In this document: positions 26,307-43,389 of the stretch, piece by piece | How the letters are laid out: each line of letters starts with the position of its first letter | Position numbering within the stretch: the stretch's first letter is position 1 | DNA from: an uncultured Actinomycetota bacterium | GTDB taxonomy: Bacteria; Actinomycetota; Actinomycetes; JAFAQI01 | Assembly: GCA_963770565.1 (NCBI GenBank) | Contig: CAVYQE010000002.1 | Coordinates: 640,001-704,000, forward strand | DNA length: 64,000 nucleotides | Reading direction: 5' to 3' | Made by a program: the position numbers and the translations under genes | The notes under the pieces: model-generated | Told to the model about the DNA's origin: nothing | Seen by the model: only the letters and a program-made list of their open reading frames with translations | Databases searched by the model: none

Positions 26307-26327
26307 GCGACGGGGTGGGGCGTGGCC

Positions 26328-26383
26328 GAGGCTCCGGGATTTGAACCCGGGATGGGCGCGAACCCAAACCGCATTAGCAGTGC
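26328..26383 (-). repeat. att site: displaced 3' part of tRNA-Ser(GCT), 56-bp direct repeat
   Basis: Identical to 43303-43358; spans anticodon arm to acceptor stem; lacks the 5' part of the tRNA. Confidence 0.95.
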
Positions 26384-27199: not shown

Positions 27200-29407
27200 T
27201 TAGTGCGAGAACCGCACCGTCGGCAGCGCGCGGCGTAGCCACCGCGGGCTGTACCAGGCGTTGTGACCTGTCAGGCGAAGGATCACAGGCAGGATGATCA
27301 ACCGGATCGACAACGCGTCAAGGAAGACTGCCACCGCCAGGATGACGCCCATCTCCTTGGGTGCGAGCGGGCCGGACAGCGCGAATGTGAGAAAGACCGC
27401 AACCATGACGCCGGCAGCCGCGACGACTACCCGCCCCGAGGTCCGCAACGCGGTGCGCATCGCGTCGTACGGGTCGCCGGTCGCGTCGTAGTGCTCACGC
27501 GCGGCGGACAGCAAGAACAGCGTGTAGTCCATCGCGACGCCCGAGAGCATCGCTCCGAAGAACAGCGGTGCCCAGGCGTCCACAAACCCCTGCGGCTGGA
27601 AGTGAAGCAGCCCGGACAGGTGGCCGTCCTGGAAGATCAGCCGGGCGACACCGAACGCGGCTGCGATCGAGGCGAGGTTGGTGATCACACCGGCAAACGC
27701 GACAAGCGGGCTACCGAGCGCGACGAGCAGTAGCAGGAACCCGAGCAAGATCAGCAGACCGAAAACCAACGGCGTGCGTGCGCTGAGGACCTTCTGCAGG
27801 TCGTGGTTCTCGGCAGCAGCACCGCCGATCAGCGTGCCGGCCGGGAGCTCGGTACGGATCCGGTCGATGGTCGCTCCGGTCGTCGCGCTGGAAGCGTCTG
27901 TGGTTGGGACCGCAAGAAGCATCTCGTACCCGTGACTGGTGCCGCCTGGCATCACAGCAGCGATGCCTCGATCGGCGCGAAGCGCACTGGTTGCCTCGCC
28001 GACCGACGAGCTCGGCGCCACGATTTGCAGGGTGCCCGGTGCGCCAGGACCGAACGCGCTCACGACCTGTTCATAGCCGGCGCGTGCCGACTGGTCCGCG
28101 GGCACGATCGCGATACTCGGCATCCCGGTGCGCAGGCCCAGCACGGGCCAGGCGAGCATCGCGAGAAGTGCGACCACAAACGACGCGGCCAGCCAGGGAC
28201 GGCGGTGCAGCAGACCGCCCCACCGATGGAGCAGATTCTCCAGGCCGCGCGGGAGATGCGGCTCGTGGAAGTGTCGCCGTTCGAACGCCTTGATCTGCCT
28301 TCGCGCCTCGCCGAACGGGAGTGCTCCATTGTTGATCCGCGGGCCGAGTCGGCCGAGCACGGCGGGCAGCAGCGTCAGCGTCGCGGCAAGTACGGCGACA
28401 ACGGCGAGCATGATCCCGAGCGCCATACTGCGGAACGCCGGGCTGGGCACGATCAGCACGGTCGACAGCGACACGAGGACGGTCAGGCCGCTGAACGCGA
28501 CCGCCTTGCCAGCGGTTGCCATCGTCTCGCCGACGGCACCAATCGCGTCGTCGCCACCACGGCGGGCCATCGCGTGACGAAACCGTACGACGATGAACAA
28601 GGCGTAGTCGATGCCGAGCGCAAGTGCAAACATCATGGCGAAGTTCAAGGCCCAGATGCTGATCGGTGCCACCCTGGTCGCCACTACGAGAGCTCCCGCG
28701 GCGCTCAACAGCCCGACGAGGGTCAACATCAGTGGCAGGCCTGCTGCAACGAGGCTGCCGAAGGCAAGCACGAGGACGGCCAGCGTGACCGGCCAGGAAA
28801 GGATCTCTGAGCGAATCATCGCCGAGTGATTCACCTTGTTGAAGTCCGACCACAACGCGCTGTCACCGGTGAGCTCCACTGACACCGACGAACTCGACAG
28901 CTTCGACAGGGGACCGGTCAGCGCGTCTGCGGCGCGAACCATGTCATTGGCGCCGGCTGCGGCACCGGCTTGGATCACCCCGGTCCGGCCATCACGTGAG
29001 AGGCTTACACCCGCAGTCGGACCGACCACTGTGCTCACTCGAGGGTCGGCGCGCAAGAGTTTCTCGACGCGGCTCACTGCCGCTTGAGCGGCCGGGTCCG
29101 TCGCGATTGGCCGGGTCGAGTCATGAACGACAACCTGCAGTGCAGTGGCGCTCAAACCGGCGAAGTCGCGGGCGATCACCGCACGAGCCTGGACCGACTG
29201 GCTCCCGTTCGCCTGCCACCCGGCTCCCGCTAAGGACGAGTCCACCTTAGGCGCGAACGCGCCGAAGCCAACAAGAACGACCAACCAGCCGAGGAGCACG
29301 ATCCGGAAGTGAGTGGCAGCCCACACGCCCAGCCGGGCCAGCCACGCCGGGCTCGGTGTCGCTGCGGGGCTCGGCGGGGTCGTCGCGCGCGGGGCGACGG
29401 TTGTCAT
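27200..29407 (-). CDS. MMPL family (RND-type) transporter
   Basis: Two TM bundles; ALGIDYALF...RFR and GVAMDY..FL motifs; AAGGAG RBS. Confidence 0.92.
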   Translation of the reverse strand: MTTVAPRATTPPSPAATPSPAWLARLGVWAATHFRIVLLGWLVVLVGFGAFAPKVDSSLAGAGWQANGSQSVQARAVIARDFAGLSATALQVVVHDSTRPIATDPAAQAAVSRVEKLLRADPRVSTVVGPTAGVSLSRDGRTGVIQAGAAAGANDMVRAADALTGPLSKLSSSSVSVELTGDSALWSDFNKVNHSAMIRSEILSWPVTLAVLVLAFGSLVAAGLPLMLTLVGLLSAAGALVVATRVAPISIWALNFAMMFALALGIDYALFIVVRFRHAMARRGGDDAIGAVGETMATAGKAVAFSGLTVLVSLSTVLIVPSPAFRSMALGIMLAVVAVLAATLTLLPAVLGRLGPRINNGALPFGEARRQIKAFERRHFHEPHLPRGLENLLHRWGGLLHRRPWLAASFVVALLAMLAWPVLGLRTGMPSIAIVPADQSARAGYEQVVSAFGPGAPGTLQIVAPSSSVGEATSALRADRGIAAVMPGGTSHGYEMLLAVPTTDASSATTGATIDRIRTELPAGTLIGGAAAENHDLQKVLSARTPLVFGLLILLGFLLLLVALGSPLVAFAGVITNLASIAAAFGVARLIFQDGHLSGLLHFQPQGFVDAWAPLFFGAMLSGVAMDYTLFLLSAAREHYDATGDPYDAMRTALRTSGRVVVAAAGVMVAVFLTFALSGPLAPKEMGVILAVAVFLDALSIRLIILPVILRLTGHNAWYSPRWLRRALPTVRFSH

Positions 29408-29474: not shown

Positions 29475-29744
29475 TCAGGCCAAGCTGAGAAAGAGCTTCT
29501 CCATCTGGTCCGGGCTCAACGGCTCAACCTCACCCGCGGCGGCCGCCGACATGCACTGCCGCATCCCAGAGGCGAGCAACTTGTAGCCGGCGCGGTCGAA
29601 CGCCTTGCTCACCGCGGCCATCTGGGTCACGATGTCGGCGCAGTCCCGGCCGTCCTCGAGCATCCGGATCACACCGCCGACCTGTCCCTCGATTCGGCGC
29701 AGGCGCTTGACGATCTCGTCGGTCGCGCCGTTGTCGAGCTCCAT
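29475..29744 (-). CDS. CsoR/RcnR-family repressor, CstR-like (persulfide-sensing)
   Basis: RLRRIEGQVGGVIRM..RDC..IVTQ; second Cys in SGMRQC, with Gly where Cu-sensing CsoRs have His. Confidence 0.88.
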   Translation of the reverse strand: MELDNGATDEIVKRLRRIEGQVGGVIRMLEDGRDCADIVTQMAAVSKAFDRAGYKLLASGMRQCMSAAAAGEVEPLSPDQMEKLFLSLA

Positions 29745-29778
29745 GTGCATTTCCTTCCTCAGCGATGTCGATCTGACC

Positions 29779-31155
29779 TCACGTCGCGACCAACTGGCAC
29801 CACGCCGTGTAGCCACCGAGCAGATCCGAGACGTCACGGGCACCGGCGCGCGCAAGGACGCTCGACGCCACGATCGAGCGCCAACCAGTCGCGCAGTACA
29901 CGAGGATAGGTTTGTCGAGGTCGAGTTCCGCGACCCGGCTCGGCAACTCGGCCAGCGGGATCGCGACGGCGCCGGAGAGCATGCCAGCGGCACGCTCGGT
30001 GGGGTTGCGCAGGTCGACAAGTTGAAGCTCGTCGACATTGTCGATGGCGTTCAGCGCCTCGGCGACGGTCAACCGGCTCGAACGCGCAGTCTGTGCCGGG
30101 TCGGCACCCAGGAGACCGATCGGGTCGGCGACGTAGCCAATGACGTTGTCGTATCCGATCCGGGCGAGCCGCATCGCGTCACGTTGCTCCGCGCCGGTGG
30201 GACTGAGCAAGATCACCCTCGTTTCGGGTGGGAGCACGGACCCCACCGTCTCCGCGAGCCTGCCCTCGCCGCTCACGTTGACGGATCCGCTGAGATGCCC
30301 GGCGGCGTACTCCCCCGGCTCGCGGGTATCGAGCACGACGGCACCGGTCACCCGTTCTGCCTCGACGGTGGCCAGGTCCAGCGCCGGAACGGTCCGTGCG
30401 CCGTCTAGGCGTTCGTGATCCTGCCGGTTGAGCAGGGCGTTGAAGCCGAAATAGCCGGGTGCCGCCGGTTGGTCGGCGGTGACGATCGCGACGAACTGGT
30501 CCTCGGCCATCGGCCGGCATGCGTAGTTGAGAACTCGCTGCTCACCGATGGTCGACTGGCGCTCGGTCGAGAGGTTCTTGCCGCAGGCTGAGCCCGCACC
30601 GTGGGCAGGGAAAACGCGCACGGAATCGGGCAGACCCATGAGCTTGACCTGCACCGACTGGTACAGCCGGCGGGCGAGCTCGTCGGCGGTCACTCCCACC
30701 GAGGCCAGCAAGTCGGGTCTTCCGACATCGCCGATGAACAGCGCGTCGCCGGTGAGGACGCCCCACGGCACCTCGTCAACAGCATGTTCGTAGACCAGCA
30801 CGCTGATTGATTCCGGGGTGTGGCCTGGAGTCGCCATGATCTCGAGCGTCACGTCGCCGAGGTCGATCCGCTCACCATCGCGAAGGGCGCGGAACGCGAA
30901 GTCCGGCGCCGCCTCCTGACCGAAGCCGATCCAGGCACCCGTCGCAGCGGCGAGCTCCAAGTGCCCCGCGACGAAGTCGGCGTGGAAATGGGTGTCGATC
31001 ACCCCGACGATGGTCAGCCCCGCGCTGGCCGCCTCGGCGAGGTAGTCCTCGACGTCCCGACGCGGGTCGACGACGACGGCGTGACGAGACGCCTCGTCAG
31101 CGATGAGGTACGACGCCTGCGACAGGCACTCGATGTAGTGCTGCGTAAAGATCAC
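29779..31155 (-). CDS. CstB-like persulfide dioxygenase (MBL fold) fused to rhodanese domains
   Basis: THFHADF, TPGHTPE, GDVGRPDL, PAHGAGSACGK and C-terminal YCATGWRS; GGAGG RBS before GTG 31155. Confidence 0.9.
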   Translation of the reverse strand: MIFTQHYIECLSQASYLIADEASRHAVVVDPRRDVEDYLAEAASAGLTIVGVIDTHFHADFVAGHLELAAATGAWIGFGQEAAPDFAFRALRDGERIDLGDVTLEIMATPGHTPESISVLVYEHAVDEVPWGVLTGDALFIGDVGRPDLLASVGVTADELARRLYQSVQVKLMGLPDSVRVFPAHGAGSACGKNLSTERQSTIGEQRVLNYACRPMAEDQFVAIVTADQPAAPGYFGFNALLNRQDHERLDGARTVPALDLATVEAERVTGAVVLDTREPGEYAAGHLSGSVNVSGEGRLAETVGSVLPPETRVILLSPTGAEQRDAMRLARIGYDNVIGYVADPIGLLGADPAQTARSSRLTVAEALNAIDNVDELQLVDLRNPTERAAGMLSGAVAIPLAELPSRVAELDLDKPILVYCATGWRSIVASSVLARAGARDVSDLLGGYTAWCQLVAT

Positions 31156-31174
31156 TTCTGCCTCCGCTGCTACC

Positions 31175-31190
31175 ATACCCCGTGAGGTAT
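31175..31190. promoter_or_regulatory. CsoR/CstR-type operator
   Basis: ATACCCCGTGAGGTAT between divergent genes. Confidence 0.7.
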
Positions 31191-31216
31191 ATGTTGTCGA
31201 CTCGAAGGAGCTTCTT

Positions 31217-31390
31217 GTGTGCATGCCCACTACGTGCCGTGATTGCGGCAAGACGACCTGGCGCGGCTGTGGCCAGCACGTCGACGCCGTCATGGCCGGT
31301 GTGCAAACGTCCCAACGCTGCACTTGCCCCCGGTCGACCCGCTCATCGCGGTCAGTGCTGACCCGACTGATCGGTCGGACCTCCGCGTAG
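31217..31390 (+). CDS. 57-aa Cys-rich protein (missed by the ORF track)
   Basis: GAAGGAG RBS + GTG; MCMPTTCRDCGKTTWRGCGQHVDAVMAGVQTSQRCTCPRSTRSSRSVLTRLIGRTSA*. Confidence 0.8.
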   Translation: MCMPTTCRDCGKTTWRGCGQHVDAVMAGVQTSQRCTCPRSTRSSRSVLTRLIGRTSA

Positions 31391-31416
31391 GCGATGGCGG
31401 GCCTCGACGGAGTGTG

Positions 31417-32583
31417 CTACTCGAGCTTGAGCAACGCCATCAGCCGTTCGGCAACCTGACCGCCCGCGTCGATCGCGACGTCAACCGCATCGCTCACCCG
31501 CAGGTCGTCACGCAGCAACGAGCGGACCTCCGCCATTGTCGTGTCAGCGGCCGCGTTGGGGCGGCCGGCGGCGGACCGCAGCGCCTCGAGACGATCTGCG
31601 GCGCGCACCAGGCACGACCGGTCGTACTGCCAACTCTCAGACCACGGGCGGTCAAGCAACATGGTGCGAATGACGCCAGCCGAGTGATCCGCGAGCAGGT
31701 CGCGCACTAGCACAAGGTTTCCCACGGACTTCGCCATCTTCACGCCGTCGACATTTACCACTCCGACGCGAAACCATCGGCGCGCGTAGGGTCGCACTCC
31801 GGTCAACGCCTCACCGATCGCCGCCTCGAATGCGTGATGGGGGTAGCGCAGGTCGGCACCGCCGGCGTGGATGTCGACGCCCAGCCCGAACGTGCTGAGC
31901 ACCATCGCAGTGCACCCGGCGTGCCAGCCTGGACGGCCCGGACCCCATGGGCTGTCCCATCGCTGGTCGGCCCCGGTCGAGGCCTGCCACAAAGCAGCGT
32001 CCAGCGGCTGCCGCTTCGCCGGGTCGGCCAGGTTGCCGCCGTACTCCGCGGCGAGCGCGAGCGCATCGGCCTCGGATAGACCTTCGGACTCGGCGATTCC
32101 CGTACCGGGCAGGTAGACGCTGCCCTCGCTGACGTAGGCGGCTCCACTCTCAACGAGGGCCGCCGCGAGCGCCACCACCTGGCTGATGTGGTGACGAGCG
32201 CGAGGCTCGTGATGCGGCCGGGAGACCCGCAGCGCTGCCATGTCAGCATCGAAGTGGTACTGCTGCAGGTAGGCGAAGGTGTCGTTCGGGGTGCCCGCAC
32301 GGTCGGCCGCAGCGCTGAGCACGTCGTCGATGTCGGTGACGTTCCGGCAGACGATCGGGGTGGTGCGACTGTCGGCGAGCACGGCCGTGAGGACGTCGAC
32401 CCAGACGTACGTCGCGGCGTGACCCAGATGCGTGACGTCGTAGGGGGTGATCCCGCAGACGTAGAGGCGCGCCCGGTCGATCATGGGCAGCGGCGATCCG
32501 GCGATCGACATCGGTTCTGGCGGGGCGGCGGTCGGGTAGACGATCTGCACGCCCCCATGATCCTCCGCGCCGCGGCGGCTCAT
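31417..32583 (-). CDS. MshC-like / CysRS catalytic-domain-only cysteine ligase
   Basis: YVCGITPYDVTHLGH, GRPGWHAGC, DLRYPHH and KMAKS; 388 aa with no anticodon-binding domain; ATGA overlap with NUDIX. Confidence 0.85.
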   Translation of the reverse strand: MSRRGAEDHGGVQIVYPTAAPPEPMSIAGSPLPMIDRARLYVCGITPYDVTHLGHAATYVWVDVLTAVLADSRTTPIVCRNVTDIDDVLSAAADRAGTPNDTFAYLQQYHFDADMAALRVSRPHHEPRARHHISQVVALAAALVESGAAYVSEGSVYLPGTGIAESEGLSEADALALAAEYGGNLADPAKRQPLDAALWQASTGADQRWDSPWGPGRPGWHAGCTAMVLSTFGLGVDIHAGGADLRYPHHAFEAAIGEALTGVRPYARRWFRVGVVNVDGVKMAKSVGNLVLVRDLLADHSAGVIRTMLLDRPWSESWQYDRSCLVRAADRLEALRSAAGRPNAAADTTMAEVRSLLRDDLRVSDAVDVAIDAGGQVAERLMALLKLE

Positions 32584-33047
32584 CGACCGGTCGACGTACT
32601 TGGTACGGCAGTGAGGAGGAACTCGCGCTGCTCATCGTGCATCAGTGGCGGGAGCTCGCGGAACCAGCCGTAGGCCCGGGCCGCGTCATCCAGCTCGATC
32701 GTCCCGGTCCATTCGGTGACCTTGAAAGCGATGCCCACCGGGCTGTCCAGGTTGTTGTTGTAGTGGCTGGGGTACTCGATGTACCCGAGGAGCTCGGCGC
32801 GATCCACCGATATCCCGAGTTCCCCCCTCGCGACCCGGGCGACCGCGTCGGTCAGCGGCTCTCCGAATCGGACCGTGCCGCCCGGCAGGTGCCACAAGCC
32901 TCGGCAGGGCTCGGCATCGCGTCTGGTGAGGAGAACCCCGCGCTCGGAGACCAGCACGACTTCCACAGTCAGCCGGGGAACCTTGCGGTAAATCGTCCAG
33001 AACTCCCGCTCGGACAGCGGGTGGTCCACGTCCATCTCATCAGTCAA
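32580..33047 (-). CDS. NUDIX hydrolase, GDP-mannose mannosyl hydrolase-like
   Basis: LSEREF...VPRLTVEVV...RRDAEPCRGLWHLPGGTVRFGEPL...RVARGELG (modified Nudix box). Confidence 0.8.
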   Translation of the reverse strand: MTDEMDVDHPLSEREFWTIYRKVPRLTVEVVLVSERGVLLTRRDAEPCRGLWHLPGGTVRFGEPLTDAVARVARGELGISVDRAELLGYIEYPSHYNNNLDSPVGIAFKVTEWTGTIELDDAARAYGWFRELPPLMHDEQREFLLTAVPSTSTGR

Positions 33048-33086
33048 CGCTCGTTCGCCCCTCGCGTAATAGGGTCTTAGGTCTCT

Positions 33087-33102
33087 ATACCCACAGGGGT
33101 AT
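33087..33102. promoter_or_regulatory. CsoR/CstR-type operator
   Basis: ATACCCACAGGGGTAT between the divergent NUDIX-mshC-like and sqr units. Confidence 0.78.
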
Positions 33103-33175
33103 CCCTGGTAGACCGGGGGCATCGTGAGGAAAGCCTGCCCGTTGGACGGTTGGCTCGTCCGCCAAGGAGCACCTG

Positions 33176-34636
33176 ATGGCTCGTGTCGTTGTCCTCGGCG
33201 CTGGGATCTCCGGCCACACCGCCGCACTCCACCTTCGCCGGCTCCTCGCTCGGCGCCACGAGGTCGTCGTCGTCTCACCGAATGCCGACTACAACTGGAT
33301 CCCTTCAAACATCTGGGTCGGCGTCGGACGGATGGATGTTGACCAGGTCACCTTCCCGCTTGCGCCCGTGTACCGGAGAAAAGGTATCGACTTTCGGCAA
33401 GCCCGGGCGGTCGAGCTCTGGCCAGAAGGCGACGACTCGAACGCCCAAGGTGCGGTCGAGATCGAGTACACCCTTCCCCATCGGTCCGGCGAGCATGAAC
33501 GACTCGCCTACGACTTCCTGATCAACGCGACCGGCCCCAAGCTGAACTTTGCGGCGACGCCGGGCCTCGGCCCGGAAGGAGGACACTCCCTGTCCGTTTG
33601 TACGGCACAGCATGCATCGGCCACCGCGGCCAAGTTCGCCGAGGTCATCGCGGCGCTTGAACGCGGCGAGACCCGGCGCCTCGTGATCGGGGTAGGCCAC
33701 GGCACGTGCACGTGCGAGGGCGCCGCTTTCGAGTACGCCTTCAACGTCGAGCACGAGCTACGGTCCCGCGGCCTCCGCGAGCGCGCCGAGGTGACCTACC
33801 TCACCAACGAGCACGAACTCGGTGACTTCGGCGTCGGCGGCATGACGTTCGCGCAGCACGGCTTTCTCACGACCAGTCAACTGTGGACGGAGTCGCTGTT
33901 CATGGAGCGCGACGTCAAGGCGGTCGTCGGCGCACATGTGCAGCGGGTCGAGCCGGGCAAGTTGTTCTACGAAACCCTCGACGGCGAGGAGGGCGCGCTG
34001 GAGTTCGACTTCGCGATGCTGCTGCCGCCCTTCCGCGGCCAGGATCTCAAGGCGTACGACCACAGGGGCGCCGACATCACGAGCGAGATGTTTGCCCCGA
34101 ACGGTTTCCTGAAAGTCGACGCTGACTACAGCCCAAAGCCGTACAACGAGTGGAAGGCGGCAGACTGGCCGAGGACGTACGTGACTCCGAAGTACCCGAA
34201 CGTGTTCGGTGTGGGGATCGCATTTGCCCCACCGCACCCGATTTCGAAGCCACGAACCTCACCCGGCGGCACCGTGATCTCGCCGGCTCCGCCCCGCACC
34301 GGAATGCCGTCAGGGCTGATGGGACGTCAGGTGGCACGCAGCATCGCGGACATGATCAACACCGGCGCGACGACGCCCACCCACACTGCGTCGATGGCGG
34401 ACATGGGTGCGGCCTGTGTGGCATCGGCCGGCGCTGGCTTTCGCAAGGGCACGGCGGCCTCCATGACGATGTACCCAGTCGTCCCGGACACCGACCGGTT
34501 CCCCGGCTACGGCCGCAGCCTCACCGATACGACCGGCGAGCTCGGACTAGCCGGGCACTGGATCAAGCACATGCTGCACGTGATGTTCATCTACAAGGCC
34601 AAGGGCCGTCCAGGCTGGTCCCTGATCCCGGAGTGA
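33176..34636 (+). CDS. sqr: Sulfide:quinone oxidoreductase-like flavoprotein
   Basis: VVVLGAGISG FAD motif; WIPSNIW; SVC; TCEGAAFEY; PPRTG; ACVAS; genomic context. Confidence 0.85.
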   Translation: MARVVVLGAGISGHTAALHLRRLLARRHEVVVVSPNADYNWIPSNIWVGVGRMDVDQVTFPLAPVYRRKGIDFRQARAVELWPEGDDSNAQGAVEIEYTLPHRSGEHERLAYDFLINATGPKLNFAATPGLGPEGGHSLSVCTAQHASATAAKFAEVIAALERGETRRLVIGVGHGTCTCEGAAFEYAFNVEHELRSRGLRERAEVTYLTNEHELGDFGVGGMTFAQHGFLTTSQLWTESLFMERDVKAVVGAHVQRVEPGKLFYETLDGEEGALEFDFAMLLPPFRGQDLKAYDHRGADITSEMFAPNGFLKVDADYSPKPYNEWKAADWPRTYVTPKYPNVFGVGIAFAPPHPISKPRTSPGGTVISPAPPRTGMPSGLMGRQVARSIADMINTGATTPTHTASMADMGAACVASAGAGFRKGTAASMTMYPVVPDTDRFPGYGRSLTDTTGELGLAGHWIKHMLHVMFIYKAKGRPGWSLIPE

Positions 34637-34644
34637 GGAGCCCG

Positions 34645-34863
34645 ATGACCGAGAACAATGCCGCGGCCTCGTCCGCGCAGCCCACAGCGGGCGGGTCCGC
34701 GACGGATCACGTGCGCGCGGTCGGCGAGGTCGCTGACTCCCTGGCGCCGATGCCGACCAGACGGACGATTCGGATCCGAACGTTCCTGCCCTATCAGGCG
34801 TACCGCTTCGGTGTCATCAACCTCAAGATGCTCAAGGTGACCCGTCGCTCCCAGTCAAGGTGA
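34645..34863 (+). CDS. Small basic hypothetical protein co-transcribed with sqr
   Basis: GAGGAG RBS; 72 aa, ...PMPTRRTIRIRTFLPYQAYRFGVINLKMLKV... Confidence 0.65.
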   Translation: MTENNAAASSAQPTAGGSATDHVRAVGEVADSLAPMPTRRTIRIRTFLPYQAYRFGVINLKMLKVTRRSQSR

Positions 34864-34888
34864 GCCTGGCGACCCCGGGTCTCGACCT

Positions 34889-34935
34889 AATGTTCGGACA
34901 TTTCCTTGACCCGAGCGAGTAAATGTCCGTACATT
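34889..34935 (+). promoter_or_regulatory. Promoter with two GntR-type palindromes
   Basis: AATGTTCGGACATT (34889-34902) and AATGTCCGTACATT (34922-34935); TTGACC -35 and TACATT -10. Confidence 0.65.
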
Positions 34936-34941
34936 GAGTGA

Positions 34942-35775
34942 ATGAGGCAGGAGTCACACCCACCGGGCCTGGCCCGAATCGACCGAACCGGGTCGGTGTC
35001 GCTGTGGGCGCAGGTCCGCGCTGATCTGGAGCGACGGCTCGCGGTCGATGAGTTCGACGGTGACTTCCCCGGCGAACTGGAGCTGACCGCGCAATACGCG
35101 GTCAGCCGGCACACCATTCGGGAGGCGTTGCGTCACCTGCGCGCGGAAGGCCTCGTCATCAGTGAGCGCGGACGCCGCTCTCGCCTCGCCGACCACGCTG
35201 AAATCGAGCAACCGCTCGGCGCGCTCTACAGCCTGTTCGCCTCGGTCGAGGCCGCCGGTCTGGAGCAGCGCAGCGTCGTCCGCGCCCTTGATCTCCGCGC
35301 CGACGGAGTCATCGCGCCGCGACTCGACGTCGAGGAGTCCACCCCACTGCTCTATCTGGAACGGCTCCGTCTGGCCGGCGAGAAGCCGTTCGCGATGGAC
35401 CGCGTCTGGCTCCCCGCGTCAGTCGCCGAACCGCTGCTCGACGCGGACTTCACCCACACTGCCCTGTACGACGAACTCGCCGCGCGCTGCGGATTCCGCC
35501 TGACCGGCGGCCGGGAACACATCCGCGCGGTCCTTCCGACCACGGCCGAACGCAGACTGCTCGAACTCGACGACACCACCGCACTGTTCGCGATCGAACG
35601 CCTTGGTGAACGGGCCGGCCAGCCAATGGAGTGGCGCCACACCCTGGTCCGTGGCGACCGATTCGCCCTCACTGCCGACTTCACCGCCCACACCGGCTAC
35701 CGGCTCGAGCTGTCCGGCCCCGAACGACAGGCTTCCAACCTCGCGACCGCATCGCAAGGACACGCCCATGGCTGA
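34942..35775 (+). CDS. GntR family regulator (HutC/UTRA type)
   Basis: PGELEL..QYAVSRHTIREAL..L..EGL HTH; UTRA-like C-terminus. Confidence 0.9.
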   Translation: MRQESHPPGLARIDRTGSVSLWAQVRADLERRLAVDEFDGDFPGELELTAQYAVSRHTIREALRHLRAEGLVISERGRRSRLADHAEIEQPLGALYSLFASVEAAGLEQRSVVRALDLRADGVIAPRLDVEESTPLLYLERLRLAGEKPFAMDRVWLPASVAEPLLDADFTHTALYDELAARCGFRLTGGREHIRAVLPTTAERRLLELDDTTALFAIERLGERAGQPMEWRHTLVRGDRFALTADFTAHTGYRLELSGPERQASNLATASQGHAHG

Positions 35776-36121
35776 CCCCTTCGATCCGCAGACTCGGGTC
35801 GACGAAGTCAGCCCGGCCGCAGCGCGGGACCTCGCCGATGCCGGTGCCGTGCTCGTCGATGTCCGTGAGCCGGACGAATGGGCCGCGGGCCACATCGCCG
35901 ACGCACAGCACATCCCGCTCGGCGACCTCGACCCTGACCTGTTCGTCGGCGGCCCGCTCGTAGTCGCTGTGTGCCGCTCGGGGCACCGCTCCGGCACCGC
36001 GGCGCTGCGATTGCACGACGCGGGAGTCGACGTCCGCAACATGACGGGCGGAATGAAGGCCTGGCAGGCCGACGGCCTGCCCGTCACCCGCGACGACGGC
36101 ACCACCGGCTCAGTCGCGTGA
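35768..36121 (+). CDS. Single-domain rhodanese (sulfurtransferase)
   Basis: DVREPDEW..GHI, VCRSGHRS, GGMKAW. Confidence 0.9.
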   Translation: MADPFDPQTRVDEVSPAAARDLADAGAVLVDVREPDEWAAGHIADAQHIPLGDLDPDLFVGGPLVVAVCRSGHRSGTAALRLHDAGVDVRNMTGGMKAWQADGLPVTRDDGTTGSVA

Positions 36122-37041
36122 CGCTCGCCTTGGCACTTCTCCTCGGTGCCGTCATCGGGCTCAGCCTGGGGGCCCTTGGTGGTGGCGGTTCGATCCTCAC
36201 CGTCCCGGCGCTCGTGTATGCGCTCGGCGAGAAGGCGTCGGCAGCCACGACCGGCAGCCTGATCATTGTCGGGATCACCGCGCTCGTTGGTTCCTTCGGC
36301 CACGCACGAGCGGGCCGGGTGCGCTGGCGCGCCGGGTTCGGTTTCGGTCTCGCCGGGGTCGCCTCGAGCTCCCTCGGGACAGCGCTCAACCGTCATATCA
36401 ACCCGGATGTGCTGCTGCTCGCCTTCGCCGGCCTGGTGGTGATCGCAGCGTCAGGTATGTGGCGTCATGCCGGGGCTGCCATCGCGGTATCTGGTGATCA
36501 GCTCGAGCTTCGCGTCGCCGAGCCTGCTTTGGCGGTGGACGGCTCAAACGCTTCGAGGAGCGCAGCGGTCGAACTACCCGGCGACCGAGGCATCCGTCCC
36601 ACACCGGCCAGCCAGCCGGAGGGATCGATCGACTTCCCCGGTGGCTCAACCACCCACGATTCCCTGAGAACCGTCCTCAAGGTGGTCGCCGCCGGTCTTA
36701 TCGTCGGCTTTCTCACCGGGTTCTTCGGTGTTGGCGGCGGCTTCGTCATCGTGCCCGCCCTGGCCCTCGTACTCGCCTACCCGATGCCTGAGGCGATCGG
36801 AACGTCCCTGCTGATCATCGCCATCAACTCAGCAGCCGCCCTCGGCGAACGAGCCGGCCAACATCAGACAGTTCATTGGCACGTGATCGCGCCGTTTACG
36901 GTCGCGGCTGTTGCCGCCAGCCTCGCCGGCAAGCAGGTCGCCGACCGAGTCGACGGACCAAGGCTGACGCGCGCCTTCGTCATTCTTCTGATCGCGGTCG
37001 CGATCTACACCGCGGTCCGCAGCATCGTCGGCCTCAGCTGA
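36118..37041 (+). CDS. TauE/SafE family sulfite exporter
   Basis: LGGGGSILTVP and FGVGGGFVIVP repeats; multiple TM helices; GTGA overlap. Confidence 0.9.
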   Translation: MTLALALLLGAVIGLSLGALGGGGSILTVPALVYALGEKASAATTGSLIIVGITALVGSFGHARAGRVRWRAGFGFGLAGVASSSLGTALNRHINPDVLLLAFAGLVVIAASGMWRHAGAAIAVSGDQLELRVAEPALAVDGSNASRSAAVELPGDRGIRPTPASQPEGSIDFPGGSTTHDSLRTVLKVVAAGLIVGFLTGFFGVGGGFVIVPALALVLAYPMPEAIGTSLLIIAINSAAALGERAGQHQTVHWHVIAPFTVAAVAASLAGKQVADRVDGPRLTRAFVILLIAVAIYTAVRSIVGLS

Positions 37042-37166
37042 GCAGACGGGAGACACCTGCTGTCACACGACACGACGGGCAAGGGTGGAGACTTCAACTG
37101 GGCACTAGCGGGGACTTCCAACTGGCCATAGTTGGGAATAGACGCCGGGCGAGTGCCGTTGAATCC

Positions 37167-37184
37167 TATACCCCTAGGGGTATA
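37167..37184. promoter_or_regulatory. CsoR/CstR-type operator (perfect palindrome)
   Basis: TATACCCCTAGGGGTATA immediately before the RBS of the DUF2892 gene. Confidence 0.82.
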
Positions 37185-37200
37185 CTGGAGGAGAAACGCC

Positions 37201-37410
37201 ATGGAACTCGTACGCTTTATGCAGACTTCGATAGGAAGAAGCCTTCGGGCCGTGCTCGGGGTGGTCCTGATCGCCGTCGGTGTCGTCCTTGGTGGTGCCT
37301 GGCTAGCGCTGGCTGGTATCGGTCTCGTTCCCCTTATCGTCGGATCGGCGGGTCTTTGCCTCATCGCCCCTCTACTCCACGCTCCGATCCGTGGAGCTCA
37401 GAGATCATGA
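37201..37410 (+). CDS. DUF2892 (YgaP-like) membrane protein
   Basis: GGAGGAG RBS; GRSLR..LG...GLVPL...GLCL. Confidence 0.8.
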   Translation: MELVRFMQTSIGRSLRAVLGVVLIAVGVVLGGAWLALAGIGLVPLIVGSAGLCLIAPLLHAPIRGAQRS

Positions 37411-37465
37411 GTGAGGCGCGCTCCGATTTCGGCAACTCACACATGACAGTTGACGGGACACGAGC

Positions 37466-38071
37466 GTGACCACGCTGGACCGGCAAGGGTGGGATGAGCG
37501 GTACCGGGACACCGAGCTGGTGTGGGGCTCTGGCCCCAACCGATTTCTCGTGGACCATGTGACGAACCTGACGCCAGGGACTGCGCTGGACGTGGCGTGC
37601 GGTGAGGGTCGCAACGCCATCTGGCTTGCGCATCAGGGATGGCGGGTGGTCGGGGTCGACTTCTCGTCCGTTGGTCTTGACAAGGCGCGAGGGCTGGCAG
37701 CGGAGACTGGTGTCACGGCGGAGTGGGTGCAGGGTGACCTCACCACATGGGAGCCACCGAAAAGCTATGACCTCGTCGTTGTCATGTACCTGCATTTGCC
37801 AGGCGCTGTGCGTCACAGTGTCTTTGCGCGGATGGCAAAGTCGGTGGCACCGGGCGGGACCATGCTCGTGGTAGGTCATGACATGTTGAACCTCACCGAG
37901 GGAACCGGCGGTCCACAGAATGCTGCCGTTCTCTACGGGCCTGAGGACGTTGTCGGCGATATCGGCTCGGTACTTGCGATCGAGAGAGCGGAGCGTGTTC
38001 ACCGGCCGGTCTCCGGTTCGGAGGGCGAGGCGATGGCCATCGACGTCCTGGTTCGCGCTCACCGATCCTGA
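37466..38071 (+). CDS. Class I SAM-dependent methyltransferase
   Basis: WDERY...PNRFL...ALDVACGEGRNAIWLA. Confidence 0.88.
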   Translation: MTTLDRQGWDERYRDTELVWGSGPNRFLVDHVTNLTPGTALDVACGEGRNAIWLAHQGWRVVGVDFSSVGLDKARGLAAETGVTAEWVQGDLTTWEPPKSYDLVVVMYLHLPGAVRHSVFARMAKSVAPGGTMLVVGHDMLNLTEGTGGPQNAAVLYGPEDVVGDIGSVLAIERAERVHRPVSGSEGEAMAIDVLVRAHRS

Positions 38072-38084
38072 ACCTTTACAGGCC

Positions 38085-38798
38085 TTAGGCGGTGGCAGAT
38101 GGCGCACGGAGCCACCGCAACCATTCGGTGTCGCCCATTAGGTCCAGCCGGCGCCAGAGCACGGGGTTATCCGTAGCCTGGCTTGCGTGGAGGGCGATGG
38201 CGCGATGCTGAATAGAACGGTCGACATGAAGCACGATGTCGACCTCGTCCTCGCTGCAGCCGGCAAAGCAGGTGCCGAAGGCGGCGTTGAGGGAATCGGC
38301 CACCGAGTCCGGGATCGACCAAGCAATCACAGGCAGATCAAGTAACTCGGCCGCACGCAAGGCTGCTTCTGTCGCCCGTTGATGGTCGCGGTGTCCCGTG
38401 ATCCCACCGAGATCGAAGACAAGTAGCCCATGAGCACCAACCGCGTTGACATATCCAACGACATCGTCGACCAGGATGTCGAGTTCGATGGAGTCGAGAC
38501 TTCCATCAGCGTGGTCCAGCAGCCGCACATCGCTGACCGTGAGTGCATCGGCGGCGGCGGCAAGCTCGGCGACCCGGACGACACGAAGGTCACCTGACGT
38601 CCCGTGCAGGGCTGACGCCTCGCCGTGAGTGAAACTGAGCACGGCGGTCGATGTGCCGGCGGCCGTCAAACTAGCGATGACAGCGCCCAAGCCGAAGGAC
38701 TCGTCGTCGGGGTGGGCGCACACAGCAACTACGGACGGCAGCCCCACAGCATCCAGCGTCATATCGCAATCTGACGCGCTGGGACGCCGCGCGGTCAT
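38085..38798 (-). CDS. PIG-L family deacetylase/amidase (MshB/Mca/BshB-like)
   Basis: AHPDDES, THGEA, GGITGHRDH and HASQ; ATGA overlap with thioredoxin. Confidence 0.88.
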   Translation of the reverse strand: MTARRPSASDCDMTLDAVGLPSVVAVCAHPDDESFGLGAVIASLTAAGTSTAVLSFTHGEASALHGTSGDLRVVRVAELAAAADALTVSDVRLLDHADGSLDSIELDILVDDVVGYVNAVGAHGLLVFDLGGITGHRDHQRATEAALRAAELLDLPVIAWSIPDSVADSLNAAFGTCFAGCSEDEVDIVLHVDRSIQHRAIALHASQATDNPVLWRRLDLMGDTEWLRWLRAPSATA

Positions 38799-39163
38799 GA
38801 CACGACGTTGGACTTGGCGACGAGGCGGTGGATCTCGTCCATGTCGAGGTCACGCACCTTCCCAATGAGCTCGTCCAGTGCAGCAGCCGGCAGTGCTCCG
38901 GGCTCCCTGTAGACGATCACCTCGTCGCGCAAGATCATGAGGGTCGGGATCGACATGATGCCGAACCCAGAGGCCATCTCTTGCTCGCCCTCAATGTCCA
39001 CTTTGGCGAACAAGAGATCCGAGTGAGTTTCAGAGGCCTTCTCGAACACGGGGGCGAATGCCCTGCAGGGTCCGCACCACGACGCCCAGAAGTCCACCAG
39101 CACGATCTCATTGCTGGTCACCACCGTGTCGAAATCCCCTTTGGTAACAGTCACCGTGGCCAC
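38795..39163 (-). CDS. Thioredoxin
   Basis: DFWASWCGPC, SIPT. Confidence 0.95.
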   Translation of the reverse strand: MATVTVTKGDFDTVVTSNEIVLVDFWASWCGPCRAFAPVFEKASETHSDLLFAKVDIEGEQEMASGFGIMSIPTLMILRDEVIVYREPGALPAAALDELIGKVRDLDMDEIHRLVAKSNVVS

Positions 39164-39179: not shown

Positions 39180-39195
39180 GTACCCCCTGGGGTAT
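39180..39195. promoter_or_regulatory. CsoR/CstR-type operator
   Basis: GTACCCCCTGGGGTAT upstream of the trx-PIG-L unit. Confidence 0.72.
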
Positions 39196-40068: not shown

Positions 40069-40791
40069 TCAAGCGACGCGGATTGCCGCCTCGATCTCGA
40101 CTCGGGCCAGCTCCTTGGTGCAGAAGAACCAGTCCTCGCACTCGATGCCGTCGATCCCGTCGTCCATGCGCTCCTTGGCGGTGCCGCATGATCCGGCGGT
40201 GGGGACGATGACCCGCTCGCCGGGCTGCCAGTCGGCGGGGGTGGCGACTGAGAAATGGTCGGCGGTCTGCAGCGCCTTGACCACCCGCAACAGTTCGGGG
40301 AAATTGCGCCCGATGCTGAGCGGGTAGTAGATGATCGTCCGGATCACGCCCTCGGGGTCGATGACAAACACCGCGCGTACCGCCTTGGTGGAGTCCTCGC
40401 CGGGCATGATCATCCCGTACTTGCGGGCCACCTCCATCGTGATGTCCTCGATGAGGGGGAAGGTGACCTCGACGTTCTTCATGTCGCGGTAGGTGATCTT
40501 GTCCTTGATGGTGCGCAGCCAGGCGATGTGGCTGTAGAGGCCGTCGACCGACAAGCCCACGAGGTCGGTGTTGTAGGCCGCGAACTGCTCTTGCATCGAC
40601 GCGAAGGTCATGAACTCGCTGGTACAGACCGGCGTGAAGTCGGCTGGGTGCGAGAACAAGATGACCCACTTGCCGACGTAGTCGGACGGGAAGTTGATCT
40701 CCCCTTGTGTCGTCACGGCGGTAAAGGATGGCGCCGGGTCGCCGATGCGCGGCATCGTCGGGACAAGGGCAGGCGTCTCAATACTGGTCAC
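40069..40791 (-). CDS. Peroxiredoxin (Prx6-type)
   Basis: FSHPADFTPVCTSE; GRN; C-terminal CEDWFFC. Confidence 0.93.
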   Translation of the reverse strand: MTSIETPALVPTMPRIGDPAPSFTAVTTQGEINFPSDYVGKWVILFSHPADFTPVCTSEFMTFASMQEQFAAYNTDLVGLSVDGLYSHIAWLRTIKDKITYRDMKNVEVTFPLIEDITMEVARKYGMIMPGEDSTKAVRAVFVIDPEGVIRTIIYYPLSIGRNFPELLRVVKALQTADHFSVATPADWQPGERVIVPTAGSCGTAKERMDDGIDGIECEDWFFCTKELARVEIEAAIRVA

Positions 40792-40856
40792 GGTGCGGCT
40801 TCCTCTGTTCAAATCGTCGGTGGCCCCGCAAAAGGGGGATCTACTATGACCAACCA

Positions 40857-40872
40857 ATACCCATGGGGGTAT
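40857..40872. promoter_or_regulatory. CsoR/CstR-type operator
   Basis: ATACCCATGGGGGTAT upstream of the peroxiredoxin gene. Confidence 0.78.
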
Positions 40873-42906: not shown

Positions 42907-43300
42907 GCGAGTCGCGTCGGAATGTCGCGGCCGTCAGCGTAGGTGGCCGGCACGGGCAGCTCGACGGTCACGTTGGCGACGCTCTATGACTACGAGGCGC
43001 GGCCGGTCGGACGCACCATTGCGCCGGTGGGTCATCTCATTGCCCGGCCGAGGTTGAGCAGAACCGGCAAATTGTCGGTCGACGTCTGCTGCCGGGCGCC
43101 TCGCCATGCGGTCGCTGCCGTCGCTTGCCCGGTCTAATAGCGTATAGAGGCGGGGCCGATTCATCGAGTGCCCGGATCGCTCACGAAACCTCGGATGCCG
43201 GTTCCGGATCGGTCCGGGCCGATCAGGTGAAGATGATCTGGCCGCCGGCGGCCTGCAAGCGAGTTACATCAGTGTGTTCAGCGAAAGCGCAGGTCAGCAG

Positions 43301-43389
43301 CGGAGGCTCCGGGATTTGAACCCGGGATGGGCGCGAACCCAAACCGCATTAGCAGTGCGGCGCCATAGACCGGACTAGGCGAAGCCTCC
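43301..43389 (-). tRNA. tRNA-Ser(GCT), island integration site
   Basis: GGAGGCTTCGCCTAGT...CCGCA-CTGCTAA-TGCGG, long variable arm, GGTTCAAATCC. Confidence 0.97.

Follow-up and report, generated by a model that had tools for sequence, protein, structure and literature searches.

The cst locus of Staphylococcus aureus, with the gene order cstR-tauE-cstA-cstB-sqr, is one of two regulatory systems with which the locus described here invites comparison. The other is the ScCsoR-PDO circuit of Streptomyces coelicolor, which pairs a CsoR-family repressor with a persulfide dioxygenase (PDO) (PMC7533328, accessible in part). As for the enzyme at the centre of this study, the accessible text of a 2022 review of duplicated aminoacyl-tRNA synthetases lists only two offshoots of cysteinyl-tRNA synthetase (CysRS), namely the mycothiol enzyme MshC and the CysRS* of Desulfobacterales (PMC9437257). 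We report what appears to be a further offshoot, a cysteine ligase of 388 amino acids (aa) encoded at positions 31417-32583 on the reverse strand of a 64,000-nucleotide stretch (the window; C2:640001-704000) from the 4.43 Mb, 67% G+C genome of a soil actinomycete. The original prediction for this DNA took the ligase, the NUDIX gene coupled to it and a nearby PIG-L/LmbE-family metallohydrolase for a thiol supply or repair module serving sulfide:quinone reductase (SQR). The underlying observation is confirmed and the interpretation as a whole is partly supported; the more durable results are an orphan clade sister to MshC with an occasional tie to persulfide genes, and the recurrence of the PIG-L enzyme, along with a TPMT-like methyltransferase, in actinomycete CstR regulons.

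Genes were called from a listing of open reading frames (ORFs) together with Pfam and NCBIfam scans of the window. The ligase matches Pfam tRNA-synt_1e at 4.5e-73, carries the motifs HLGH (residues 52-55) and KMAKS (282-286), and lacks an anticodon-binding domain, being 388 aa long against 458-483 aa for actinomycete CysRS. It falls well short of the curated models of both relatives, scoring 271.5 bits against a cut-off of 485.1 for MshC (TIGR03447) and 252.4 against 340 for CysRS (TIGR00435). A search of its own genome with the MshC model gave four matches, namely the true MshC on contig 10 (580.3 bits), a CysRS-like protein at C2:539805 (278.2), the window copy (270.8) and a weak match (26.1). 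Since MshC, MshA (647 bits), MshB (388), MshD (297) and Mca (496) are all encoded outside the island that holds the ligase and all exceed their cut-offs, the organism has the full canonical mycothiol pathway. The ligase is hence distinct from the housekeeping MshC of this genome, as had been supposed, and mshA and mshD, rightly reported missing from the window, are present elsewhere in the genome. It is a third paralogue beside MshC and CysRS.

Its position was examined in an IQ-TREE phylogeny ('quick' mode, model LG+C20+F+G4) of 85 proteins, none of which was dropped: the window protein with 40 orthologues, 21 MshC, 21 CysRS and, as outgroups, two distant sequences. The new proteins, MshC and CysRS form separate clans with supports of 100, 99 and 100, respectively, and the window protein lies outside the MshC clade in a clan of its own that is sister to MshC with a Shimodaira-Hasegawa-like approximate likelihood ratio (SH-aLRT) support of 99. 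The tree thus places the ligase in an undescribed clade that has MshC as its sister. A full-text literature search, whose coverage takes in few subscription journals and supplements, returned no second or MshC-like enzyme. The best 120 relatives in a large protein collection are 353-408 aa long and 56-68% identical to the ligase, and those that carry a name at all bear only 'cysteine--tRNA ligase' or 'class I tRNA ligase family protein', with the sole exception of P0059 (named MshC ligase by JGI). Prauserella, Gandjariella thermophila and Qaidamihabitans albus are among the named sources. In a search for longer members of the family, a 687-aa protein (P0242, 59% identical over 79% of the query) with an additional PF02595 domain was the only fused protein found.

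The clade is widespread in the class. Among 400 sampled genomes of the class, tallies of which include four flagged as unpublished (G422, G429, G440 and G631), orthologues at E<=1e-95 occur in 67 and are 47-63% identical to the ligase. MshC scoring above its cut-off is present in 65 of these 67, the exceptions being G469 and the 79%-complete G620, which has a truncated match. Members of the clade thus live alongside MshC and CysRS in Actinomycetes that make mycothiol. In 400 genomes drawn evenly from the phylum, only 32 of them from the same class, the best match elsewhere is 46% identical. Scans of genome and metagenome contigs added 4 + 4 loci of the family (47-56% identical).

The residues that define MshC chemistry are retained to a large extent. 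In the accessible part of the published account of Mycobacterium smegmatis MshC (PMC9736012), Zn is held by C43, C231 and H256, G44, T46 and T83 contact the amino group of cysteine, Y48 of the 44-GITPY-48 loop shields the adenylate, and H55 of HIGH and K289 of KMSKS make further contacts. The Zn ligands align with C43, C224 and H249 of the window protein, and across 41 members of the new clade C43, G44, T46, P47, Y48, H52-H55, T83, W220, H221, C224, H249 and K282-S286 are kept at 98-100%. Thus the entire contact set of that account is represented, with Ala for the middle Ser of KMSKS, and the GITPY loop is common to the new clade and MshC and is not found in CysRS. An AlphaFold2 model of the ligase, built from a 71-sequence family alignment (mean predicted local distance difference test score 93.5), matches MshC structures best in Foldseek (8HFN, 8HFM and 3C8Z; query-normalised TM-score, TMq, 0.85-0.87 and target-normalised, TMt, 0.82-0.83); the 8HFN alignment spans 394 columns (TMq 0.87, TMt 0.82). 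It covers CysRS 1U0B only in part (TMt 0.69), leaving the extra CysRS domain uncovered, and the modelled architecture is that of MshC, without an anticodon-binding domain. Because the contact residues are kept and the fold is closest to MshC, the cysteine-adenylating half-reaction looks intact and the enzyme looks tRNA-independent. Pfam, alignment and model thus agree with the initial description of a CysRS-fold ligase with HLGH and KMAKS motifs, Cys/Cys/His Zn ligands and no anticodon domain, and we consider it a genuine extra MshC-like cysteine ligase that is probably active.

Away from these contacts the protein has been remodelled. Of 169 alignment columns conserved at >=90% in MshC, the new clade keeps 70 and does not keep 99. 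A comparison of the three clades gave 51 columns identical in all, 15 shared only with MshC and 5 only with CysRS, 43 specific to MshC, 13 specific to the new clade and 8 unlike both MshC and CysRS (e.g. HHE to HHA and KMSKS to KMAKS). As over half of the positions conserved in MshC are lost and the two enzymes have long coexisted, the acceptor is probably not bound in the way that MshC binds glucosaminyl-inositol (GlcN-Ins) and may be a different amine. The window copy has peculiarities of its own. The WHAGC motif, which had been contrasted with WHIEC of MshC, is indeed present and is confined to this copy, the family consensus being WHAEC (E in 97% of 70 relatives); the residue concerned is G223 where MshC and CysRS (21 of 21 each) have E, and A67 stands where all three clades have R. 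Decay of the window ligase was considered and rejected, as its 7 deviations at 151 family-conserved positions lie within the range of the family (median 4, maximum 11).

The ligase gene resides in a genomic island. A tRNA-Ser(GCU) gene (43300-43389, reverse strand) serves as attachment site, and the far boundary is a 59-nt direct repeat of its 3' end (26325-26383, identical at 58 of 59 positions to 43300-43358); the 17-kb span between them, which is an island inserted at this tRNA gene, encloses all the protein-coding genes and operators discussed here. The G+C fraction drops to 0.64-0.65 at 36-42 kb of the window. Orthologues of the ligase, the NUDIX protein and the PIG-L enzyme are each absent from 20 genomes of the same family, three of them of the same genus. 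The ORFs tried near the tRNA gene yielded no Pfam match to an integrase domain, and apart from the tRNA the island has no other RNA element of known type.

Five operators punctuate this island. The inverted-repeat pattern ATACCCNNNGGGGTAT, with <=2 mismatches allowed, has sites in the window at 31175, 33087, 37168, 39180 and 40857. Strand-matches total 10, a number that none of 100 shuffles reached and that compares with an expectation of 0.31; every one of the five sites stands before a transcription unit. Operator 1 (ATACCTCACGGGGTAT, 31175-31190) is upstream of the reverse-strand pair cstB-cstR, which encodes a CstB-like persulfide dioxygenase of the metallo-beta-lactamase (MBL) type fused to rhodanese (29779-31176; Pfam Lactamase_B and Rhodanese) and a CsoR-family repressor of CstR type (about 29475-29750, likely start ATG 29750 in the start scan; Pfam Trns_repr_metal, 2.7e-23). 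The start scan allows ATG 31176 or GTG 31155 for cstB; the former would overlap the last bases of operator 1, which hints at a leaderless transcript, and the sole promoter-like site in 31100-33300 overlaps the same operator. Operator 2 (ATACCCACAGGGGTAT, 33087-33102) lies inside the 140-bp spacer between the NUDIX gene (32580-33035, reverse) and the divergent sqr (33176-34636, forward), whose product matches solved sulfide:quinone reductases at 1e-37 (PDB 3HYV) and has orthologues 63-74% identical in other CstR islands. Operator 3, the perfect palindrome ATACCCCTAGGGGTAT (37168-37183, from the pattern scan), precedes a TPMT/TehB-like S-adenosylmethionine (SAM)-dependent methyltransferase recognised by domain scan (37466-38071, forward). 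Operator 4 (39180-39195) lies 17 nt upstream of the thioredoxin gene trx (38795-39163, reverse), which is followed by the PIG-L gene (38085-38798, reverse). Operator 5 (40857-40872) precedes a 1-Cys peroxiredoxin (40069-40857, reverse; Pfam AhpC-TSA, 1.7e-31, and 1-cysPrx_C) and a second SAM methyltransferase (39320 to about 40060, reverse; the listed ORF extends to 40669 and the domain occupies its 3' part).

Several elements of the earlier description could thus be read directly in the DNA: the ATGA overlaps that couple NUDIX to ligase (32580-32583) and trx to PIG-L (38795-38798), the divergence of the NUDIX-ligase pair from sqr across a single operator, and the placement of trx-PIG-L under the same operator type, the operators being five in all and not two. 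The repressor aligned to CsoR 4M1P retains both Cys, reading C...GMRQC against C...HANHC, with Gly at what we take to be the position of the copper-ligating His in HANHC; this pattern is that of a predicted persulfide-sensing CstR rather than a copper-sensing CsoR. The repressor, with two Cys and no copper-ligand His, and the repeated inverted-repeat operators before the sqr, PDO-rhodanese and tauE units both conform to a CstR-type persulfide regulon. We therefore read the operators and gene content as placing the ligase in an island with sqr, cstB, tauE and trx-PIG-L, in line with the first assignment, and the island as a CsoR/CstR-type regulon, presumably persulfide-responsive, with five operator-bearing units: cstB-cstR, NUDIX-ligase divergent from sqr, the TPMT-like methyltransferase, trx-PIG-L and peroxiredoxin-methyltransferase. 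The TauE/SafE anion exporter (35971-37041, forward; Pfam TauE, 3.4e-43) follows a GntR/UTRA regulator (34942-35775, forward; domain scan). The same two genes adjoin in G551 (loci L191/L195; 67-73% identical), and GntR/UTRA may be a second regulator in the island. In the same genome a pair of peroxiredoxin and second methyltransferase (79% and 52% identical) also lies behind operators (L191).

The NUDIX gene looks foreign. Because its relatives are 144-167 aa long, its start is most likely ATG 33035, giving 151 aa; the start at 33308 in the ORF list overlaps sqr. The protein on record (P0122) has 180 aa (32580-33122), and its start would fall beyond operator 2. The NUDIX box, GGTVRFGEPLTDAVARVARGELGI, can be aligned to the variant form that occurs in GDP-mannose mannosyl hydrolase (GDPMH; 1RYA/2GT4), the window protein having RVARGE and GDPMH RLTMAE where canonical boxes have REIEEE, so that the REUxEE glutamates are missing in both, and all 120 NUDIX relatives among the matches listed carry the variant R[IV]AxRE. 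The comparison to GDPMH made at the outset holds for this box and does not extend to the curated GDPMH model NF011963, against which the protein scores 39.5 bits for a cut-off of 146. No orthologue was found in 400 genomes of the class (E<=1e-20) or in 300 of the phylum (E<=1e-25). Relatives that are 60-68% identical come, where named, from Patescibacteria, Saccharimonadales, Dormibacteria and one metagenome-assembled genome of Actinomycetota.

To assess the proposed module we searched 40 orthologous ligase loci (+-10 kb) with the proteins of the island at E<=1e-8 and coverage of at least half. NUDIX, PIG-L, SQR, thioredoxin, GntR and the TPMT-like methyltransferase are each absent from all 40, and NUDIX, PIG-L and SQR remain absent at E<=1e-3 with any coverage. 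Clustering of ORFs within +-7 kb of the 40 loci revealed no universal neighbor of the ligase. Pfam tallies reach a maximum of 2 of 35 for the upstream neighbor, 6 of 35 for the downstream one (dienelactone hydrolase, DLH) and 6 of 117 for second and third neighbors (two-component proteins). The recurrence of DLH and of the conserved ORF clusters, where traced, goes back to one related group (f108), and a conserved ligase neighborhood was rejected, as no Pfam family recurs beyond close kin among first to third neighbors. Likewise, no 8-mer shared upstream of the ligase orthologues exceeds background. Conversely, neither the ligase nor the NUDIX gene occurs in any of 19 orthologous PIG-L loci (+-8 kb). 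Related CstR islands do without the NUDIX-ligase pair: in G571 two operators precede cstB and, immediately after it, sqr, with trx-cstR-PIG-L alongside, and G551, G623 and G403 have a similar layout. Because of these absences, the missing NUDIX orthologues and the sister islands lacking the operon, the three genes are found together only in this island among the genomes searched. Ligase, NUDIX and PIG-L are not a conserved system, and the proposal that they form a module is not supported.

A minority of ligase loci nonetheless show a sulfur link, so that the suspected connection of the clade to sulfur-oxidation genes survives for CstB and fails for SQR and PIG-L. A CstB-like MBL-rhodanese gene adjoins the ligase in 4 of the 40 loci (G622, G750, G530 and G478). 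In G622 its product is 61-63% identical to the window CstB. G750 and G530 share one genus and G478 belongs to another family, and in these three the ligase and CstB-like genes are adjacent and convergent. The adjoining gene is the only CstB-like gene of the genome in G622, G750 and G478 and one of two in G530; roughly 0.05 such adjacencies would be expected by chance in 40 loci of genomes of 3.6-10 Mb, a figure that is an estimate and not a computed test. Furthermore, in G622 (L082, 7992-10538) TauE (residues 153-387 by Pfam) shares a single 848-codon open frame with the ligase (residues 498-788). No stop intervenes between the two; the frame is divergent from cstB and has two operator sites upstream. 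The arrangement may be a true fusion, or an assembly slip or missing stop, and the Arg-rich linker fits either; the search for longer family proteins returned no TauE-ligase fusion, which is weak evidence. L082 is the only one of the 40 loci with an operator near the ligase.

The PIG-L enzyme has a different and more regular distribution. It has domain PF02585 (83.1 bits, 3.2e-23), with AHPDDE and HxDH kept in 20 aligned members, and thereby belongs to the superfamily, yet it reaches none of the curated models: BshB2 44 bits against 195, MshB (TIGR03445) 32.3 against 224.35 and Mca (TIGR03446) 25.9 against 277.15. Its best solved relative is LnmX (PDB 5BMO, 6e-9). Orthologues occur in 19 of the 400 class genomes (48-57% identical). 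The PIG-L loci hold 43 operator-type sites in 283 kb, whereas 757 kb around the ligase orthologues hold 6. Of the 19 PIG-L loci, 11 have a site no more than 500 bp upstream of the gene and 16 have one at some point in the locus; those with none are L177, L179 and L185, the last only 4.3 kb long. Neighbors in these 19 loci include thioredoxin (6), the TPMT-like methyltransferase (6), CstR (6), CstB-like proteins (6), TauE (5), SQR (4; 63-74% identical), MMPL transporters (3) and peroxiredoxin (2). The PIG-L enzyme is thus a separate, recurrent member of actinomycete CstR regulons, and a literature search that was narrow, with subscription journals mostly outside it, found no paper linking a PIG-L enzyme to a CstR-type regulon. 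The TPMT/TehB-like methyltransferases near PIG-L (L178, L182, L183, L186, L188 and L191) are 33-53% identical to that of the island. Their recurrence suggests that thiol or sulfide methylation is a regular part of these regulons. The island also encodes an MMPL-family transporter (27200-29407, reverse; Pfam MMPL, 3.8e-63). G736 and G662 (L186 and L188) encode MMPL proteins 60-61% identical to it in the vicinity of operators and PIG-L orthologues.

Based on these observations we favour, with moderate confidence, the view that the island carries an MshC-sister ligase with a probably different acceptor as part of an island-specific accessory operon in a CstR-type regulon, with no conserved system behind it. 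The ligase would bind L-cysteine on its Cys/Cys/His zinc site as MshC does, form Cys-AMP with ATP and then transfer the cysteinyl moiety, with no tRNA involved, to a small-molecule amine. Together with a foreign GDPMH-like NUDIX gene it may have been recruited, in this island specifically, as an accessory operon under operator 2, and because of that placement it is probably induced whenever sulfide oxidation is. Several points weigh against this view. That operator 2 controls the NUDIX-ligase operon is deduced from position only, and the operator could serve sqr alone. The tree was made by a quick method, and the 40 loci represent relatives of 47-64% identity, the closest ones (65-68%, metagenomic) being outside the set. 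E223G and R67A could mean altered or reduced activity of the window copy. The loss of MshC residues is no proof of a different acceptor, a structure of MshC with GlcN-Ins being unavailable (we found none that is acceptor-bound in the literature examined). Finally, the four PDO-rhodanese adjacencies and the TauE-ligase frame of G622 suggest a real tie between ligase and sulfide oxidation, so 'accessory' may understate the link.

Among other explanations, the supply or recycling of mycothiol deserves first consideration and is in our judgement unlikely. Here the ligase would be a stress-inducible MshC isozyme acting on GlcN-Ins, and the PIG-L enzyme, acting like MshB or Mca, would release GlcN-Ins, either from GlcNAc-Ins or from mycothiol that has been damaged or persulfidated, so that SQR and CstB are kept supplied with mycothiol. 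This would account well for the presence of ligase and PIG-L under one operator type in one island, for a clade that is sister to MshC, keeps all Cys, Zn and ATP contacts and is nearly confined to MshC-bearing genomes, and for the PDO-rhodanese genes that adjoin the ligase in 4 of 40 loci; the title of entry 3C8Z moreover names MshC as the rate-limiting enzyme. PIG-L is also somewhat commoner where the ligase is present (6 of 67 genomes) than where it is absent (13 of 333), on the assumption, supported by identical per-family denominators, that both searches drew the same 400 genomes. This is a weak trend among related genomes and no evidence of a system. Against the reading, ligase and PIG-L are co-localised in none of the 40 ligase loci or 19 PIG-L loci. 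Six PIG-L genomes do have the ligase, in every case far from PIG-L, while the other 13 lack it and 61 of the 67 ligase genomes lack PIG-L. The 99 MshC-conserved columns not kept by the clade, the low scores of the PIG-L protein against MshB and Mca, and the canonical MshB, MshC and Mca already in the genome likewise speak against an isozyme.

It is distinctly unlikely, in our estimate, that the NUDIX-ligase pair is a hitch-hiker with no tie to sulfide oxidation, operator 2 serving sqr only and the clade having its role elsewhere, with another metabolite or a tRNA-like or protein acceptor. The 35 of 40 orthologous ligase loci that have no sulfur gene or operator, the want of conserved neighbors and the background level of upstream 8-mers are all as such a passenger would have them. 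Against this, operator 2 is only 52 nt from the NUDIX start, the only CstB-like gene of the genome adjoins the ligase in three genomes and one of two in a fourth, well above the chance estimate, and in G622 the ligase is in frame with TauE behind two CstR operators.

The synthesis of a different cysteinyl-aminosugar thiol, made on demand under persulfide stress, draws all three enzymes into one pathway: NUDIX would free a sugar from a nucleotide sugar, PIG-L would deacetylate it and the ligase would cysteinylate it. The three are formally analogous to the MshA/A2, MshB and MshC steps and come under one regulator, NUDIX and ligase are translationally coupled, the R[IV]AxRE box resembles that of GDPMH, and most MshC-specific residues are missing from the ligase. 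We hold this scheme to be quite improbable, given that the three genes meet only in this island, that the named NUDIX relatives, apart from one Actinomycetota genome, come from other groups and that none turned up in 700 actinobacterial genomes, and that the NUDIX score is far under the GDPMH cut-off. A dedicated cysteine persulfide synthase of the CysRS (CARS) type, for which a CysRS-superfamily fold inside a persulfide regulon and the retained KMSK lysines K282 and K285 might speak, is scarcely credible, as the activity of E. coli CARS needs the lysines of both KIIK and KMSK (PMC5660078, accessible in part), the first KIIK lysine position (88) is V in the ligase and in 73% of the new clade, P in MshC and K in 21 of 21 CysRS, and the clade has the MshC-specific GITPY loop.

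What the accessory-operon view leaves standing is a third clade of CysRS offshoots, present in about one-sixth of the sampled class genomes and nearly always beside MshC. Its apparently intact adenylating site and remodelled remainder point to an undescribed product or acceptor containing cysteine in a bacterial group whose thiols are regarded as well charted, and the occasional capture of the ligase by persulfide regulons suggests sulfide or polysulfide stress as the condition under which to look for it. A bolder conjecture, to which we give little credence, is that the clade makes a second cysteinyl-amine small molecule tied to persulfide metabolism, that NUDIX, PIG-L and ligase would form a CstR-controlled, on-demand route to this thiol or to a re-cysteinylated mycothiol breakdown product, and that CstR-linked PIG-L enzymes might be amidases or deacetylases of a sulfur-loaded thiol. 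Actinomycete CstR regulons have so far been described mainly in terms of sqr, PDO-rhodanese and tauE. PIG-L and the TPMT-like methyltransferase add to this list, and these extra members offer a handle on the processing of thiol persulfides in mycothiol-using bacteria.

Set against the systems already described, the enzymes of the island resemble their relatives in core chemistry and depart from them elsewhere. The PIG-L protein shares its domain and both metal motifs with MshB, Mca, BshB and LnmX; unlike MshB, Mca and BshB it lies far below every cut-off and belongs to a family tied to CstR operators in most of its loci. The NUDIX protein aligns with GDPMH (NudD/WcaH; 1RYA, 2GT4) over residues 8-95, including the N-terminal segment, and like it has a box without the REUxEE glutamates, whereas its match to the solved GDPMH structure amounts to only 36.7 bits and, among solved structures, it is best matched by 4DYW, a MutT/NUDIX protein that is itself uncharacterised. 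With CysRS (E. coli 1LI5/1U0B, TIGR00435) the ligase has in common the catalytic Rossmann domain and Zn-mediated recognition of cysteine; it is unlike CysRS in its missing anticodon-binding domain and sub-threshold score. With MshC (3C8Z/8HFM, TIGR03447) the likeness is closer: MshC is the sister clade, the best sequence match (5.5e-67) and the best fold match, and the two share the Zn ligands, G44, T46 and T83, the GITPY loop with Y48, HIGH, a KMSKS-type loop and the absence of an anticodon domain. In contrast to MshC, the ligase misses the model cut-off, coexists with a true MshC, has HHA for HHE and KMAKS for KMSKS, and does not keep the N-terminal W..P.LPG motif or helix 88-95. As to the regulon, the island is like S. 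aureus cst and S. coelicolor ScCsoR-PDO in its CsoR-family repressor without the copper-ligand His, in its GC-rich inverted-repeat operators upstream of regulated genes and in its content of sqr, PDO-rhodanese and tauE. It differs from both in being borne on a tRNA-Ser island and in extending to five units, which add thioredoxin, PIG-L, two methyltransferases, a 1-Cys peroxiredoxin and, here only, the NUDIX-ligase pair.

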